Virus genome (UHGV): UHGV-1828797 | Length of the DNA: 12,136 nucleotides | Reading direction: 5' to 3' (one strand) | Origin: a virus | Shown here: positions 2,176 through 7,016 of the stretch, in pieces | Numbering within the stretch: position 1 is the stretch's first letter | Layout of the letters: the number at the start of each line of letters is the position of its first letter | Made by a program: the position numbers and the translations under genes | The notes under the pieces: generated by a model | Database searches by the model: none | What the model saw: the letters and a program-made list of their open reading frames with translations, nothing else | What the model was told of the DNA's origin: nothing

Positions 2176-2580
2176 ATGACGGAGCAACAGATGGCAAAAG
2201 CCAAATGGCACAGACTTCCGGCATTCACCATTCCGCTGTTTCAAAGTGCGCATGTCTACCTCGCAACAACCAGAGAACAGTTTCAGCACGCTGATAAATT
2301 CCTTGGCGGCAGCGGGGATGAGAAGCCATTCAATCTTGGGCTTGCAAGCAACTATGAAAACACTGATACGGGTGAGCGATGCTATCTGATTGGAGTATTC
2401 GATCAGCAGATCGCTACGCTCGTTCATGAGTGCGCCCACGTCTGCTTTTACGTTTGCTCTGATGTCGGCGTGACGACAAGGCCTGAAGATGCCAACGAGA
2501 CGTACTGTTACATGCTGGACAGGATGGTTAATCACTTCCTGCCATTCATTCAGGAGAAACAAGATGTATCACTGGAATAA
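2176..2580 (+). CDS. Hypothetical protein with HExxH motif (putative minimal Zn-metallopeptidase-like), moron region
   Basis: 134 aa containing LVHECAHVCFYV followed about 20 residues later by EDANETYCYML. This HExxH...E(x)AN spacing resembles ImmA/IrrE (COG2856) zincins. The start may instead be ATG 2191 (M6), which has ACGGAG 7 nt upstream. Size and position resemble ybcV-type genes of E. coli cryptic lambdoid prophages, but this is unverified. Confidence 0.6.
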   Translation: MTEQQMAKAKWHRLPAFTIPLFQSAHVYLATTREQFQHADKFLGGSGDEKPFNLGLASNYENTDTGERCYLIGVFDQQIATLVHECAHVCFYVCSDVGVTTRPEDANETYCYMLDRMVNHFLPFIQEKQDVSLE

Positions 2581-2758
2581 TCAATCCCCTTATTGCCAAT
2601 GCCAACGCTGCCCGTGCTGCGGGAAGATTGTTAACCAATTTACTGGCAACAATTTCTTCAAGACTGGTTATGGATATGGTGTTGCGGGTAGCGTTAATTG
2701 CTCTGGGGCTGCTGCTGAAACGACATCAAACACAGGCAAGCAGAAAGGAGCTAAGTAA
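2564..2758 (+). CDS. Hypothetical small Cys-rich protein (64 aa), overlapping the 3' end of the previous ORF
   Basis: ATG 2564 is preceded by AGGAGA (2552-2557) at 6-nt spacing. The N-terminus has a CxCxxCxCC cluster (YCQCQRCPCCGK) and the C-terminus is Gly/Ala/Thr-rich and low-complexity. Overlaps the upstream ORF by 17 nt in another frame. Confidence 0.35.
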   Translation: MYHWNNQSPYCQCQRCPCCGKIVNQFTGNNFFKTGYGYGVAGSVNCSGAAAETTSNTGKQKGAK

Positions 2759-2852: not shown

Positions 2853-3341
2853 ATGGCAGCACCAAAGGGCAACCGATTTTGGGAGGCCCGCAGTAGTCAT
2901 GGGCGAAATCCTAAATTCGAATCGCCTGAGGCGCTGTGGGCTGCTTGTTGTGAATACTTCGAGTGGGCTGATGATAACCCACTATGGGAGGGTAAGGTAT
3001 TTTCATATCAGGGAGAAATAATTAAGGCTAATGTCCCTAAGATGCGAGCCATGACTATTTCAGGATTGTGTACCTTCCTTGATATCACCAGGCAAACGTG
3101 GGGAACCTTCCGGTCAATGGAAGGTTTTTCTGACGTCACATCACGAGCGGAAGACATCATCTACGACCAGAAATTCTCTGGCGCAGCCGCTGACCTTCTC
3201 AACGCTAACATCATCGCCCGTGATTTGGGCCTCAAAGAGCAGTCGCAAGTTGAAGACGTGACACCTGATAAGGGAGATCGCGATAAGCGGCGCTCTCGTA
3301 TCAAGGAGCTATTCAACCGTGGAACTGGACGCGATTCTTGA
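2853..3341 (+). CDS. terS: Terminase small subunit (P22 gp3-like)
   Basis: 162 aa starting [22 protein letters not shown], recognised as the P22-type small terminase family. It sits immediately upstream of, and overlaps, the large terminase gene. It contains a pac-like sequence (next feature). Confidence 0.85.
3120..3141 (+). other. Candidate pac (packaging initiation) site inside terS
   Basis: GAAGGTTTTTCTGACGTCACAT matches about 16 of 22 positions of the P22 pac site (GAAGATTTATCTGAAGTCGTTA, from memory) and lies at the equivalent position in the gene, about nt 268 of terS. Confidence 0.4.
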
Positions 3342-4815
3342 TAACCTGAGCGACGAAGAGCAAATCGAATTGCTCGAGCTACTCGAAGAAGAAGAGAACT
3401 ACCGGAACACACACCTGCTATATGAATTTACGCCATACAGCAAACAGCGTGAGTTCATCGACGCCGGGCATGACTATCCAGAGCGCTGTTTTATGGCTGG
3501 TAACCAGCTTGGTAAGTCATTTACTGGTGCTGCTGAAGTCGCGTTTCACCTTACCGGGCGTTATCCGGGCACAAAAGGCTATCCTGCTGATGGTAAATAT
3601 GGCGGGGAGTGGAAAGGTAAGCGTTTCTATGAGCCTGTTGTCTTCTGGATTGGCGGCGAGACAAACGAGACGGTAACCAAAACGACTCAACGCATCCTGT
3701 GCGGTCGTATTGAAGAGAATGATGAACCGGGCTACGGTTCAATACCGAAAGATGACATCATTAGCTGGAAGAAGTCTCCTTTCTTTCCGAACCTTGTTGA
3801 TCACCTTCTGGTTAAGCATCACACGGCTGATGGCGTTGAAGATGGCATTTCAATCTGCTACTTCAAACCATACTCGCAAGGCCGTGCTCGCTGGCAGGGT
3901 GACACAATCCACGGCGTGTGGTTTGACGAAGAGCCACCATACAGCATTTATGGCGAAGGTCTTACCCGTACCAACAAATACGGGCAATTCTCAATTCTGA
4001 CGTTTACCCCGCTGATGGGGATGTCTGACGTTGTTACCAAGTTCCTGAAGAATCCCAGCAAGTCGCAGAAAGTGGTCAACATGACCATCTATGACGCTGA
4101 GCACTATACCGACGAGCAGAAAGAGCAAATCATCGCATCCTATCCTGAGCATGAGAGAGAGGCGCGTGCTCGCGGTATTCCTACGATGGGTAGCGGTCGA
4201 ATCTTCCAGATACCGGAAGAGACGATTAAGTGTCAGCCGTTCGAGTGTCCTGATCACTTCTACGTCATCAATGCAATGGACTTCGGATGGGATCACCCAC
4301 AGGCACACATCCAGCTTTGGTGGGATAAAGACGAGGACGTGATTTATCTTTCTCGCGTCTGGAAGGCCAAACAGAAGAAGGCGACAGAGGCATGGAGTGC
4401 TGTTAAAGCATGGAGCAAAAACACCCCTACGGCTTGGCCTCATGACGGGCATCAGCACGAAAAGGGAGGCGGCGCTCAGCTCAAGGAACAATACGCCGAC
4501 GCTGGGTTCGATATGTTGCCAGATCATGCAACATGGCCTGATGGAGGTAATGCGGTCGAACCCGGGATAGCAGAGATACGCGACATGATGCTCGACGGTC
4601 GTTTCAAGGTATTTAACACCTGCGAGCCATTCTTTGAAGAGTTTCGCCTGTATCACCGCGATGAGAACGGGAAGATCGTCAAGCTAAATGACGACATCCT
4701 TTCTGCTGTTCGCTATGGCTACATGATGAGGCGTTTTGCAATACAGATGCGAGACATCAAAGATCCTAAAGAGATTGATTACTCAAGCTACAACATACCT
4801 TGCGGAGTTGGATGA
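3319..4815 (+). CDS. terL: Terminase large subunit (ATPase/nuclease)
   Basis: 498 aa with a GTG start overlapping the terS 3' end. Walker A-like motif AGNQLGKSF near the N-terminus; size and position match P22 gp2-type TerL. The stop TGA (4813-4815) overlaps the portal start. Confidence 0.9.
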
Positions 4816-7016
4816 TGGCTGATGATAGAAAGATGACTGACTGGCATCGCAAGGTGCTGTGCAACTTTGATAATGCCTGGTCAGCAACGCAGGATATGCG
4901 TGAGCAGATTATTGAGGCTCAACGTTTCGTTCGGGTATCCGGCGCACAGTGGGAAGGCAGCACAAACGCTGGTTACTCATTTGATGAAGGCAGGTTTGAG
5001 CATTACCCGCGCTTTGAACTGAATAAGATTGCCCGTGAATGTGATCGCATCATTGGCGAGTATCGACAGAATCGCATCAGCGTTAAATTCAGGCCGAAGG
5101 ACGATAAGGCATCGGAAGCGTTAGCCGAAAAGATGAATGGTAAATTCCGCGCTGACTATCAGGAAACATCCGGTGGCGAAGCGTGTGATAACGCATTTGA
5201 TGATGCTGTAACGGGCGGATTCGGTTGTTTCCGCATGTGTGCCGATTACGAAGATGAAATGGATCCGAGTAACGAGCAGCGACGCATCAGCCTTCTTCCT
5301 GTTTACGACCCAGCGACATGCGTCTTCTTCGATCAGGACAGCAAGCAATATGACCGCTCTGATGCTATGTGGGCTATGGAAATGTTCTCCATGACGCCTA
5401 AAGCGTTCGAGGCTGAATACCCTGATTCCATCGCGGCAAGCCTTTCTAGTGATGACACTGGCACTCAATATGACTGGTCAACGCCAGATGCCATCTATGT
5501 TGGTCGCTACTACGAAGTTCGCATAGAGAAGGTGAAGCTCACGGCATGGCGTAACCCTGTTAGCGGAGAAACGGCAATCTATGATGAAGAGCAAATCAAA
5601 GATATTGTCGACGAGCTGACCGATGGCGCATTCGAACTGATTGGCGAGCGGACAGTGAAGAAACGCCGCGTTTATTGCGGCCTTCTGTCTGGCGCTGAAT
5701 GGCTGGAAGAACCGAAGCGTATTCCGGGCGAACATATTCCTCTCATCCCGGTATATGGGCGTCGTTCATTTGTTGATAATCAGGAGCGAATAGAAGGCCA
5801 CGCAGCAAAAGCGATGGATGCACAGCGTCTTGAGAACCTGATGGTTTCCATGATTGCAGATAACGCTACTCAGGCTGGCGGTGATGGCATTCCTATCGTG
5901 GATGTTGATTTCATTCCAGGTACATTAATGAATCACTGGGCAGAGAGGAATAAGAAAAGACCTGCAGTTCTTCCTATGACCAGCAAGAAGGACAAAAACG
6001 GAACAGTCATTTCAGAAGCTCAGGTTGCTGGCTGGACACCACCGACACAAATGCCTCCTGCTCTTGCCGGGCTATTGCAGTACACCGGAACTGCTATTCA
6101 GCAAATTACAGGCGCGTCGCAGCTTGAGAACATGCCGAGCAACGTCGCTACTGATACCGTTGATAGCATCTTTAACCGGATGGATACGCAGTCCTATATC
6201 TACATGGACAACATGGCTAAATCCATGCGTCGCGCTGGCGTTGTGTGGCTTTCTATGGCGCGTGAAGTCTATGGCAGCGATACGCCGATGCGTATCGTTA
6301 ATGAGGACGGCAGCGATGACGTGGCGCTGATGACTGGTGAAGTGGTTGACCGTCAGACAGGGCAGGTTATCGCGCTTAACGACCTTTCGCAGGGTAACTA
6401 TGAAGTGACTGTCGATGTCGGTCAGTCGTTCGCTACTCGCCGTGATGCAACGGTTAAGTCGTTACTTTCCATGCTGGCACTTATCCCGCCAGGAACGCCG
6501 AAGCATGACCTTGTATCGTCGATGATTCTCGACAATATGGACGGCGAAGGGATGGACGACCTTAAAGAATACAACCGCAATCAGTTGCTTCTGTCTGGCG
6601 TTATTAAGCCGAGAACACCAGAAGAACAGCAGATGGTTGAGCAGGCGAAACAACAACAGGCCAGTCAGCCAGATCCGGCTATGGTTGCAGCGCAAGGTCA
6701 GCTTCTTGCTGGTCAGGCTGAATTGCAGAAAGCGCAGAACGAACAGGCAGCCATTCAGGTTAAAGCATTCCAGGCACAGACTGATGCTCAGGTTGCTGCG
6801 GCAAATGTTGTGAAAATCCTCGCATCTGCCGATAGCCAGCAGAAATCTGATATCCGCGAGGCTCTGAAACTGCTCGGACAGTTCCAGCAACAGCAAGGAG
6901 ATAATGCCCGTGCTGATGCAGAGCTTGTCCTGAAAAGTCAGGCACAGGGCCATGCGCAGCGCATGGACATCAGCAGCATCCTGCAAAAATCAACTCAGCA
7001 ACAACCACAGCAGTAA
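4812..7016 (+). CDS. Portal protein (P22 gp1-like)
   Basis: Conserved portal motifs recalled from P22 gp1 (RRRVYCGLLSG, EHIPLIPVYG) and a long C-terminal Gln/Ala-rich helical extension (PEEQQMVEQAKQQQASQPDPAMVAAQGQLLAGQAELQKAQ...) like the P22 portal barrel. Start taken at ATG 4812 (ATGA overlap with terL); ATG 4815 is equally possible. The ORF track starts at TTG 4800. Confidence 0.9.
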   Translation: MMADDRKMTDWHRKVLCNFDNAWSATQDMREQIIEAQRFVRVSGAQWEGSTNAGYSFDEGRFEHYPRFELNKIARECDRIIGEYRQNRISVKFRPKDDKASEALAEKMNGKFRADYQETSGGEACDNAFDDAVTGGFGCFRMCADYEDEMDPSNEQRRISLLPVYDPATCVFFDQDSKQYDRSDAMWAMEMFSMTPKAFEAEYPDSIAASLSSDDTGTQYDWSTPDAIYVGRYYEVRIEKVKLTAWRNPVSGETAIYDEEQIKDIVDELTDGAFELIGERTVKKRRVYCGLLSGAEWLEEPKRIPGEHIPLIPVYGRRSFVDNQERIEGHAAKAMDAQRLENLMVSMIADNATQAGGDGIPIVDVDFIPGTLMNHWAERNKKRPAVLPMTSKKDKNGTVISEAQVAGWTPPTQMPPALAGLLQYTGTAIQQITGASQLENMPSNVATDTVDSIFNRMDTQSYIYMDNMAKSMRRAGVVWLSMAREVYGSDTPMRIVNEDGSDDVALMTGEVVDRQTGQVIALNDLSQGNYEVTVDVGQSFATRRDATVKSLLSMLALIPPGTPKHDLVSSMILDNMDGEGMDDLKEYNRNQLLLSGVIKPRTPEEQQMVEQAKQQQASQPDPAMVAAQGQLLAGQAELQKAQNEQAAIQVKAFQAQTDAQVAAANVVKILASADSQQKSDIREALKLLGQFQQQQGDNARADAELVLKSQAQGHAQRMDISSILQKSTQQQPQQ

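Follow-up and report, generated by a model that had tools for sequence, protein, structure and literature searches.

The late region of a P22-like (pro)phage, represented by UHGV virus genome UHGV-1828797, raises the question of whether a short open reading frame (ORF) with a dense cysteine cluster, located between the lysis cassette and the terminase genes, is a gene and what its product might do. The window, meaning the whole stretch of 12,136 nucleotides that was analyzed, contains this frame at positions 2564–2758 (the Cys ORF), overlapping the end of a gene for a protein with an HExxH motif. From comparison with relatives, 2564–2758 is read here as a real protein-coding gene of a P22-like (pro)phage that is absent from standard annotation. 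It is probably a small late-operon gene for a metal-binding mini-protein, possibly packaging-related, that constitutes the enterobacterial member of a scattered and undescribed phage set. The features on which the argument turns are as follows.

2564–2758, + strand: Cys ORF, encoding a 64-aa protein in which the N-terminal Cys-knuckle part is conserved and the Gly/aromatic/Thr tail evolves fast.

2552–2557, + strand: Shine-Dalgarno sequence of the Cys ORF, AGGAGA, 6 nt ahead of the ATG and within the final codons of the HExxH gene.

2591–2626, + strand: Cys5 knuckle core, codons 10–21 of the Cys ORF, YCQCQRCPCCGK.

2191–2580, + strand: HExxH gene, 129 aa, with HECAH at residues 79–83; the ORF list starts it at ATG 2176, while the family-conserved start is ATG 2191 (MAKAKW...).

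2628–2819, + strand: rival third-frame ORF, TTG start, 63 aa, with a hydrophobic stretch; judged not to be a gene.

The Cys ORF starts at ATG 2564–2566 and ends, after 64 codons on the + strand, at TAA 2756–2758; its overlap with the HExxH ORF is 17 nt (2564–2580). The start, the AGGAGA 6 nt upstream, the length and the overlap are all as given in the preliminary description of this DNA, and the CxCxxCxCC cluster and Gly/Ala/Thr tail that it listed are present at residues 11–19 (CQCQRCPCC, with cysteines at residues 11, 13, 16, 18 and 19) and beyond; a sixth Cys is at 46, and the tail contains many Gly, Ala, Thr and Ser residues. The computed product is 6.9 kDa, has an isoelectric point (pI) of 9.0 and is hydrophilic with no transmembrane segment, and the translated ORF has no signal sequence or double-glycine leader. 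Its predicted peptides include IVNQFTGNNFFK and TGYGYGVAGSVNCSGAAAETTSNTGK. A longer version of 89 aa, beginning at the upstream in-frame ATG 2489, was considered and rejected; this codon is ACG in the diverged relative L004, in which a gene is called from the ATG equivalent to 2564, and because ATG 2489 is not conserved, 2564 was taken as the start.

The ORF or its Cys cluster alone is not beyond chance, as the window contains 91 ORFs of at least 40 aa, and at least five Cys within 9 residues were found, over six frames, in 41 of 300 first-order Markov random windows (~14%). Only comparative evidence makes the Cys ORF real. The informative diverged relatives, by DNA identity, were L004 (a Logan assembly, 81%), L008/L021 (Atlantibacter subterraneus, 84%) and L020 (84%), and the ratio of non-synonymous to synonymous substitution rates (dN/dS) was calculated by the Nei-Gojobori method, pairwise against L004, L008 and L020, in three frames. 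In the 2564 frame, dN/dS was 0.47 against L004, 0.26 against L008 and 0.21 against L020, compared with 0.86–1.84 in the other two frames. Variant alleles were also counted, each once, over 14 intact distinct sequences, with the frameshifted remnant L002 from E. coli A10 left out; this gave 26 synonymous and 41 non-synonymous changes in the 2564 frame, for which the expected synonymous fraction is 0.21 (synonymous excess, p = 0.0007), and no synonymous excess in the 2628 frame (p = 0.54) or the remaining frame (p = 0.91) of the same region.

The constraint was strongest where the cysteines lie. Codons 9–29 differed from those of L004 by 5 synonymous and 0 non-synonymous changes, and the N-terminal part of the product was ~3x less variable than the tail. 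C11, C13, C16, C18 and C19 were invariant across every intact variant (Cys46 is lost in L004), and the knuckle core was unchanged in all of them except for one P17Q. The sole indel inside the Cys ORF, in the tail in L004, is 6 nt long and in frame, and in L020 a GTG replaces the ATG at the identical position. At the Shine-Dalgarno sequence, TTCAGGAGAAACAA was identical in 15/15 distinct relatives aligned; the Shine-Dalgarno sequence, the start position and an overlap of 14–17 nt with the HExxH gene were retained in all relatives, and all full-length copies found were intact except the A10 remnant. On the two points that the preliminary description had proposed to settle by comparison, then, the Cys pattern proved to be conserved in every intact copy and purifying selection acts on the 2564 frame, not on the 2628 frame.

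The TTG 2628 ORF, which had been named as a competitor for the same DNA, does exist and is hydrophobic, but it is not conserved as a protein. Compared with the diverged relatives its dN/dS fell in the 0.86–1.84 range, two stops interrupt it in L004, its hydrophobic LIALGLLLKRH is LIAQDPRQRQ in L020, and its product occurs in the protein database solely as the frameshift fusion P0006. It was rejected as a gene on its dN/dS, the L004 stops, the L020 replacement and the lack of synonymous excess. Like Rz1 within Rz, it lies in another frame of phage late-region DNA; unlike Rz1, it lacks a lipobox and a signal peptide, shows no protein conservation and is broken by stops in L004. An embedded Rz1-type o-spanin, with the lipobox LNGC and a proline-rich mature part, is present in the other frame of Rz at 1497–1775 of the window.

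That the Cys ORF is not a gene, but a chance ORF kept open by recent ancestry, or that the real gene is the TTG-2628 frame, is almost certainly wrong and, on the comparative data, already refuted for the most part. The 2628 frame is open over the whole region in most copies and Cys clusters of comparable density are found in random windows at the rate given above, yet the purifying selection is frame-specific over three diverged lineages, the indel is in frame and the start codon is retained, in the 2628 frame L004 has stops and L020 a non-conservative change of the hydrophobic stretch, and the 12-residue core recurs in frame in small ORFs of unrelated phages. NCBI annotation (Prokaryotic Genome Annotation Pipeline) leaves 2581–2852 empty in the E. 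coli genomes examined, which also agrees with a non-gene. Two counts among close relatives speak against coding: relatives of at least 97% identity gave 8 non-synonymous changes to 1 synonymous in a manual count from alignments, which is approximately neutral, and in L019, the closest scripted comparison, 6/6 differences are non-synonymous in the 2564 frame and 5 of these are synonymous in the 2628 frame. Given such near-neutral changes, the constraint is visible only at greater divergence.

The Cys ORF is rare. It was found in 18/5426 complete E. coli genomes, and is annotated in none of them, in 13 IMG/VR contigs and in 1/185,579 species-representative genomes; it was present in no INPHARED isolated phage, and searches of 50,697 phage records by tblastn and distant blastn gave no match. 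E. coli H6 (NZ_CP010170) is one carrier of the module. Gene callers on other assemblies do predict it, with six matching database proteins, one a GenBank 'hypothetical protein'. The product had no match in Pfam, PHROGs, NCBIfam or PADLOC, and Pfam searches with the whole protein and with residues 1–29 returned zero families even at E ≤ 10, zinc-finger, zinc-ribbon and metallothionein families included. A sequence search of the PDB found no significant relative, the best being deoxycytidylate deaminase 1vq2 (E = 0.065, mostly through the tail), and the ribosomal protein eS27 at E = 2.3. An exhaustive HMMER search over 1.84 billion representatives returned solely the Cys ORF's own family and repeat-inflated tail matches; the latter, long repetitive proteins whose score came from many weak repeats matching the tail, were rejected as spurious. 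Full-text literature searches found nothing on the peptide sequences or on Cys-rich proteins near terminase genes, and two P22-like genome papers do not discuss these genes. The possibility that the unannotated stretch is an RNA element was also rejected; it matches nothing in Rfam at E ≤ 1, and neither a promoter nor a terminator was seen within it on the + strand.

Viral and metagenome contigs were scanned for the motif CxCxxCxCCGKI, with the Y, R and P not fixed. Besides the E. coli group, the scan recovered small ORFs with YCRCHRCPCCGKII (L166) and with YCTCK[RI]C[PE]CCGKIV, the latter in three variants of an 80-aa aquatic protein, so that Y, R and P turned up although the pattern left them free; most metagenome matches were discarded as poly-Cys or low-complexity chance. 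Profile searching and further scans added P0134 (PYCTCKRCPCCGK, 62 aa), P0135 (VCRCHRCPCCGKIVSQ, 74 aa), P0136 (YCTCGERCPCCGK, 106 aa), L280, L282, L283 (DYCQCQRCPCCGKL) and L284. A diverged homologue of P22-like type, L285, was added as well; it is 47% identical over 36 aa (pairwise E = 9e-10). The common core, [DP][YF]CxCxRCPCCGK, is found in small ORFs of ~60–110 aa, and core plus tail are shared by the window ORF, L285, L283, L282, L280, L284, P0134, P0135 and L166. Behind the knuckle, most members have many Tyr, Trp, Phe, Pro, Gly and Asn residues, and a distal Cys is present in several. In the viral collection, CxCxRCPCCGK gave 20 matches compared with ~0.1 expected by chance, by our own estimate. 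The R and K are not required in a relaxed scan (YCxCxxCPCCG) and yet are present in all real matches; L286, from the same scan, was an out-of-frame chance match and was set aside. The variant CxCxxRCPCCGK had no matches in viral contigs. Similarity beyond the motif is significant for L285 alone, and the other members share a core of 12–16 residues. The suggestion made earlier of a metal-binding knuckle is reasonable as a sequence feature, as there is a CPxCG-like turn in the conserved core and the core recurs in unrelated phage proteins.

The gene order around the knuckle gene, with TerS and TerL denoting the small and large terminase subunits, is given below for the groups with a terminase or portal gene nearby.

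Window type: Cys ORF, 29-aa mini-ORF, TerS.

L285: knuckle gene, Lys-rich ORF, 110-aa gene, Sf6-type TerS.

L277: knuckle gene, 101-aa gene, TerL.

L278: knuckle gene, 140-aa gene, TerL (phrog_2, 9e-9), SU10-type portal.

L282: TerL (phrog_2, 6e-19), knuckle gene, 114-aa gene, portal.

L284: TerL (phrog_38, 2e-64), knuckle gene, 692-aa gene.

When the window type and L285 were taken as one enterobacterial group, the knuckle gene lay at most two genes from a terminase or portal gene in 5/7 evaluable groups, a plain tally with no null model. The Cys module does not depend on any one type of terminase, since it precedes small terminases of gp3 type, Sf6 type and others. In the aquatic 80-aa protein (L179, 4686–4928, minus strand; P0130–P0133), YCTCK[RI]C[PE]CCGKIVKED is at the extreme C-terminus, behind an unrelated N-terminal domain, and the gene is found in low-GC phage contigs among replication genes (a primase/helicase-like and a nuclease-like ORF). 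This protein suggests that the knuckle is a portable module.

The HExxH protein corresponds to phrog_1365 (function unknown), with a profile match of E = 6.4e-37 over residues 1–125, and is 60% identical to Orf129 of phages ST64T, L and epsilon34. In an alignment of 63 family sequences, M1, A2 and K3 are nearly invariant and H79, E80, H83, N102 and E103 are invariant, the N-E pair falling exactly 20 residues past the second His. An N-E 20 residues after the second His is the thermolysin-like spacing. An AlphaFold2 (AF2) model of the protein, with a predicted local distance difference test (pLDDT) score of 85, consists of beta-beta-alpha-beta-beta followed by two long helices, and would place the HExxH on helix 74–91 and the N-E at the start of helix 103–128. 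Structural relatives of the model are uncharacterized phage proteins only, a few of them labeled SprT-like or metalloprotease, and no significant fold match was found among solved structures. Matches to the SprT-like Pfam family (PF10263) were sub-threshold in 41/63 family members (best E 0.01), and TIGR04267, the aKG-HExxH-type peptide beta-hydroxylase family, matched 30 residues around the HExxH at E = 0.002, scoring 18 bits against a 40-bit cut-off. The putative protease of the preliminary description therefore stands as to its invariant HExxH and N-E and falls short as to the SprT-like and solved-structure matches; at most, it is a putative minimal gluzincin. In the mEp515-type subgroup (180–194 aa), a Lys-rich C-terminal tail is fused onto the HExxH protein. 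P22 has a 35%-identical homologue elsewhere, at ~13.8–14.2 kb of its 41.7-kb record, in largely unannotated DNA.

The remaining genes of the late region considered here are the following, with the strand where it was noted.

721–1260: lysozyme gene.

1274–1819: Rz with embedded Rz1.

1891–2091: 66-aa ORF (MLTVKVMSPGGGEEIHCGLSVGF...), phrog_3909 (E = 8e-37), function unknown.

2745–2750, + strand: Shine-Dalgarno sequence of the mini-ORF, AAGGAG, part of the right junction described below.

2758–2847, + strand: mini-ORF of 29 aa, which starts on the TAATG of the Cys ORF stop and ends 5 nt before the gp3 start.

2853–3341, + strand: small terminase subunit of P22 gp3 type (Pfam GP3_package, E = 8e-31), the next conventional gene downstream of the Cys ORF.

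3319–4815 and 4800–7016: large-terminase- and portal-sized ORFs, at positions annotated as terminase large subunit and portal protein in related loci.

The slot that holds the Cys ORF is bounded by two short conserved junctions, at 2545–2566 and 2742–2760 of the window. The left junction, ATTCAGGAGmAACAAr-ATG, lies within the last HExxH codons and supplies the Shine-Dalgarno sequence and start; it is also found ahead of other small ORFs that follow HExxH genes. The right junction, AAAGGAGCTAAGTAATG, contains the codons for the C-terminal ..KGAK* of the Cys ORF, together with a Shine-Dalgarno sequence and the next start; the Cys ORF stop overlaps the start of the mini-ORF as TAATG. This junction also closes the Lys-rich slot ORFs and Orf129 of ST64T. 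In ST64T and L, Orf129 runs directly into the right junction, and the Dec decoration gene comes next. Klebsiella-type phages have a Lys-rich ORF of 44–49 aa in the slot (phrog_2423), and L270 has a basic ORF of 73 aa (phrog_16160); the slot was also noted at L024 2855–3016. The slot ORFs are all small and basic and have a C-terminus of ..KGAK or similar. The idea that Cys-rich and Lys-rich slot ORFs are strict alternatives was dropped, since L285 (12100–12280) has a knuckle ORF and a Lys-rich ORF in tandem.

For the mini-ORF, synonymous changes were in excess in no frame but its own (p = 0.0005), and L020 lacks 18 nt of it without loss of frame. Its family, 23–30 aa in length, immediately precedes small terminase genes of gp3 or Sf6 type in at least 120 IMG/VR stretches, the 23-aa form usually following a DUF2560 gene. 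It is almost never annotated, and is unannotated in phages APC_JM3.2, E212 and EC.P3. The mini-ORF may encode a conserved micropeptide or serve as a translational leader for the small terminase.

Taken together, these features suggest how the locus could work. The Cys ORF lies in the late operon, between the lysis cassette and the terminase genes, and its Shine-Dalgarno sequence and start are inside the 3′ end of the HExxH gene while its stop overlaps the mini-ORF start, so that the HExxH gene, the Cys ORF and the mini-ORF are most likely translated as a coupled chain. Residues 1–29, which contain the Cys5 core, would bind a metal ion, most likely zinc, because the core combines a CPxCG-type knuckle with dense CxC/CC spacing; residues 30–64, with many Gly, aromatic and Thr residues, would be a flexible tail that evolves fast. 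The protein may then be a metal-stabilized adaptor that acts late, at or near DNA packaging or head assembly. Confidence in this last step is low, as it is in the judgment that a tie to the packaging/head-assembly stage is more likely than a role as a dedicated HExxH subunit. A more specific proposal is that the knuckle proteins form an undescribed mini zinc-knuckle family spread over unrelated tailed phages, encoded beside terminase/portal genes and involved in packaging DNA or in the first stages of head assembly, for instance by acting on terminase, portal or DNA as metal-dependent adaptors; stated so fully, it is speculative and unlikely.

Several points weigh against the packaging-related mini-protein, starting with the fact that translation, metal binding and function of the Cys protein are all inferred from sequence. 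Its AF2 model had a pLDDT of 40 from a four-sequence alignment and was uninformative. The motif set was found by searching for the motif itself, which makes its invariance partly a matter of construction, and on 12 residues homology would not be separable from convergence. In L283, 4.2 kb of DNA that includes a VapE-type primase separates the knuckle gene from the TerS downstream, the aquatic 80-aa group is found among replication genes and not beside a terminase, and regions adjacent to terminase genes often gather small accessory genes, so that position is weak evidence for function. The linkage to the HExxH gene in enterobacteria, moreover, fits equally well with the Cys protein being a dedicated HExxH partner, that is, a zinc- or DNA-binding module supplied in trans or a cysteine-switch-type inhibitor of a minimal SprT-like metalloprotease, kept at a fixed ratio by translational coupling. 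We consider such a partnership doubtful. A functional pair of protease and small Cys-rich partner had been proposed in the preliminary description, and part of it holds: the 14–17 nt overlap and the Shine-Dalgarno sequence within the HExxH gene are kept in all copies, and among P22-like contexts an HExxH gene lies within 2 kb upstream in 10/10 with the knuckle compared with 1/65 without it, these ten being copies of one mosaic module and not independent events. The one copy that has lost its HExxH gene, in E. coli A10, carries a frameshift, L008 has an ST64T-type HExxH N-terminus recombined onto a window-type 3′ end with the Cys ORF, the Cys protein is basic where the HExxH protein is acidic (pI 5.3), and some HExxH homologues, those of mEp515 type, have a basic tail fused at the C-terminus. 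SprT-type proteases carry an attached zinc-binding or basic module, and a protein made of a Cys knuckle and a basic tail would mimic this layout in trans. The HExxH protein resembles the minimal gluzincins SprT, Wss1 and Spartan in its HExxH and invariant N-E 20 residues on, its sub-threshold SprT-like matches and the SprT-like labels among its structural relatives, and a cysteine switch is reported to regulate the SprT-family protease Wss1 (PMC4559962), which was counted for the pairing. The part that fails is generality: most HExxH homologues are without the Cys ORF (Orf129 of ST64T/L, L024, L027 and L028), unrelated Lys-rich ORFs occupy the same slot, a DUF2560 gene separates the HExxH and knuckle genes in L285, and no HExxH homologue was found in the DNA examined around knuckle loci of non-enterobacterial phage groups. 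The resemblance to SprT, Wss1 and Spartan is also incomplete, with no Pfam match above threshold and no solved-structure match, a Cys ORF unlike any Pfam zinc ribbon, and a pairing absent outside one enterobacterial module, and the HExxH protein is itself only a putative peptidase. A dedicated protease partnership is unproven, if possible within the enterobacterial module.

The same adjacency of a small Cys-rich peptide and an HExxH gene, with the weak TIGR04267 match, could also indicate a precursor of the ribosomally synthesized and post-translationally modified peptide (RiPP) type, processed or modified by the HExxH protein as leader peptidase or hydroxylase. This is highly improbable; the match is far under its cut-off and covers 30 residues only, the neighbors are lysis and terminase genes only, with no other maturation, export or immunity genes nearby, the peptide has no signal sequence or double-glycine leader, and its N-terminal Cys part is conserved and its C-terminus variable. 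The usual RiPP leader/core pattern is the reverse of this. Improbable, to a lesser degree, is an independent 'moron'-type small gene, host-directed or anti-defense in function and unrelated to packaging or the HExxH protein, that occupies a recombination-prone slot of the late operon. The interval between lysis and terminase genes is indeed a mosaic of swappable cassettes (DUF2560, HExxH, Lys-rich phrog_2423, phrog_16160, Dec, a DUF1737-like gene and the mini-ORF), with conserved junction sequences on both sides of the cassette, and the rarity of the Cys ORF in E. coli genomes, the near-neutral variation among close relatives and the location of two motif-sharing groups among early or replication genes agree with an accessory role. 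Such a role does not predict recurrence beside terminase/portal genes in five unrelated groups, and the locus has no promoter-like + strand site upstream for expression from the prophage and no PADLOC match.

For the metal-binding mini-protein itself, the known proteins nearest in kind differ in layout. RCPCCGK fits the C-P-x-C-G knuckle of zinc-knuckle and zinc-ribbon mini-proteins (rubredoxin-like folds and eS27), and the Cys protein is likewise small, basic and Cys-dense; of the PDB sequence alignments, that to eS27 alone extends over the knuckle core (RCPDCG / RCLVCGRVLAQPTGG with QRCPCCGKIVNQFTGN), at the non-significant E value given above. A zinc ribbon, however, consists of two CxxC knuckles and a beta-hairpin, whereas the Cys protein has five Cys in 9 residues and no conserved second knuckle. 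The dense CxC, CxxC and CC spacing recalls bacterial metallothioneins (SmtA/BmtA) and Cu(I)-thiolate CxC motifs, and SmtA metallothionein begins CxCxxCxC. Metallothioneins have at least 9 Cys plus His over ~55 residues, whereas the Cys protein has 5–6 Cys, no Pfam match at E ≤ 10 and a place in a late phage operon. In HK97-like phages, HNH endonucleases are small accessory genes next to terminase genes, and the knuckle proteins are similar in being small, Cys-containing and encoded immediately beside terminase/portal genes in several unrelated phage groups; they differ in having no HNH motif or Pfam match and in being far shorter. P22-like phages package by headful from pac, and no need for an HNH-type packaging factor is known in them.

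Small phage genes are routinely missed, and here the NCBI annotation of every E. coli genome examined is empty over 270 nt that contain two conserved genes with the look of translated ones, for the 64-aa Cys protein and the 29-aa mini-ORF. The more interesting outcome is an undescribed knuckle motif, common to small phage proteins whose genes cluster at packaging genes, and with it the conserved mini-ORF, also unannotated, that directly precedes the small terminase. Should the knuckle proteins work alongside the packaging machinery, one of the best-studied molecular motors in virology would gain a new accessory component; otherwise, the locus still shows cleanly how short conserved junctions allow small coupled cassettes to be exchanged in a late operon.

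Upstream of these cassettes, at 1837–1860 of the window, a strong intrinsic-terminator-like hairpin (10 pairs and a T-run) lies between Rz and the block formed by the 66-aa ORF, the HExxH gene and the Cys ORF, and transcripts reaching these three presumably depend on late antitermination. The position of the 66-aa ORF is taken by a DUF2560 gene in most E. coli relatives, and the window's pairing of the 66-aa ORF with the Cys module had a full-length match in no complete E. coli genome. In E. coli A10 (NZ_CP028764; L002, 2501–2838), a decayed module is found in which a segment matching 2518–2857 of the window follows a truncated Rz pseudogene; the HExxH gene is lost, and a 1-nt deletion fuses the first 16 codons of the Cys ORF to the 2628 frame. 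The database protein P0006 is a frameshift fusion resembling that of A10, and P0003 is a fusion of the Cys ORF to the mini-ORF; both are single-contig variants.

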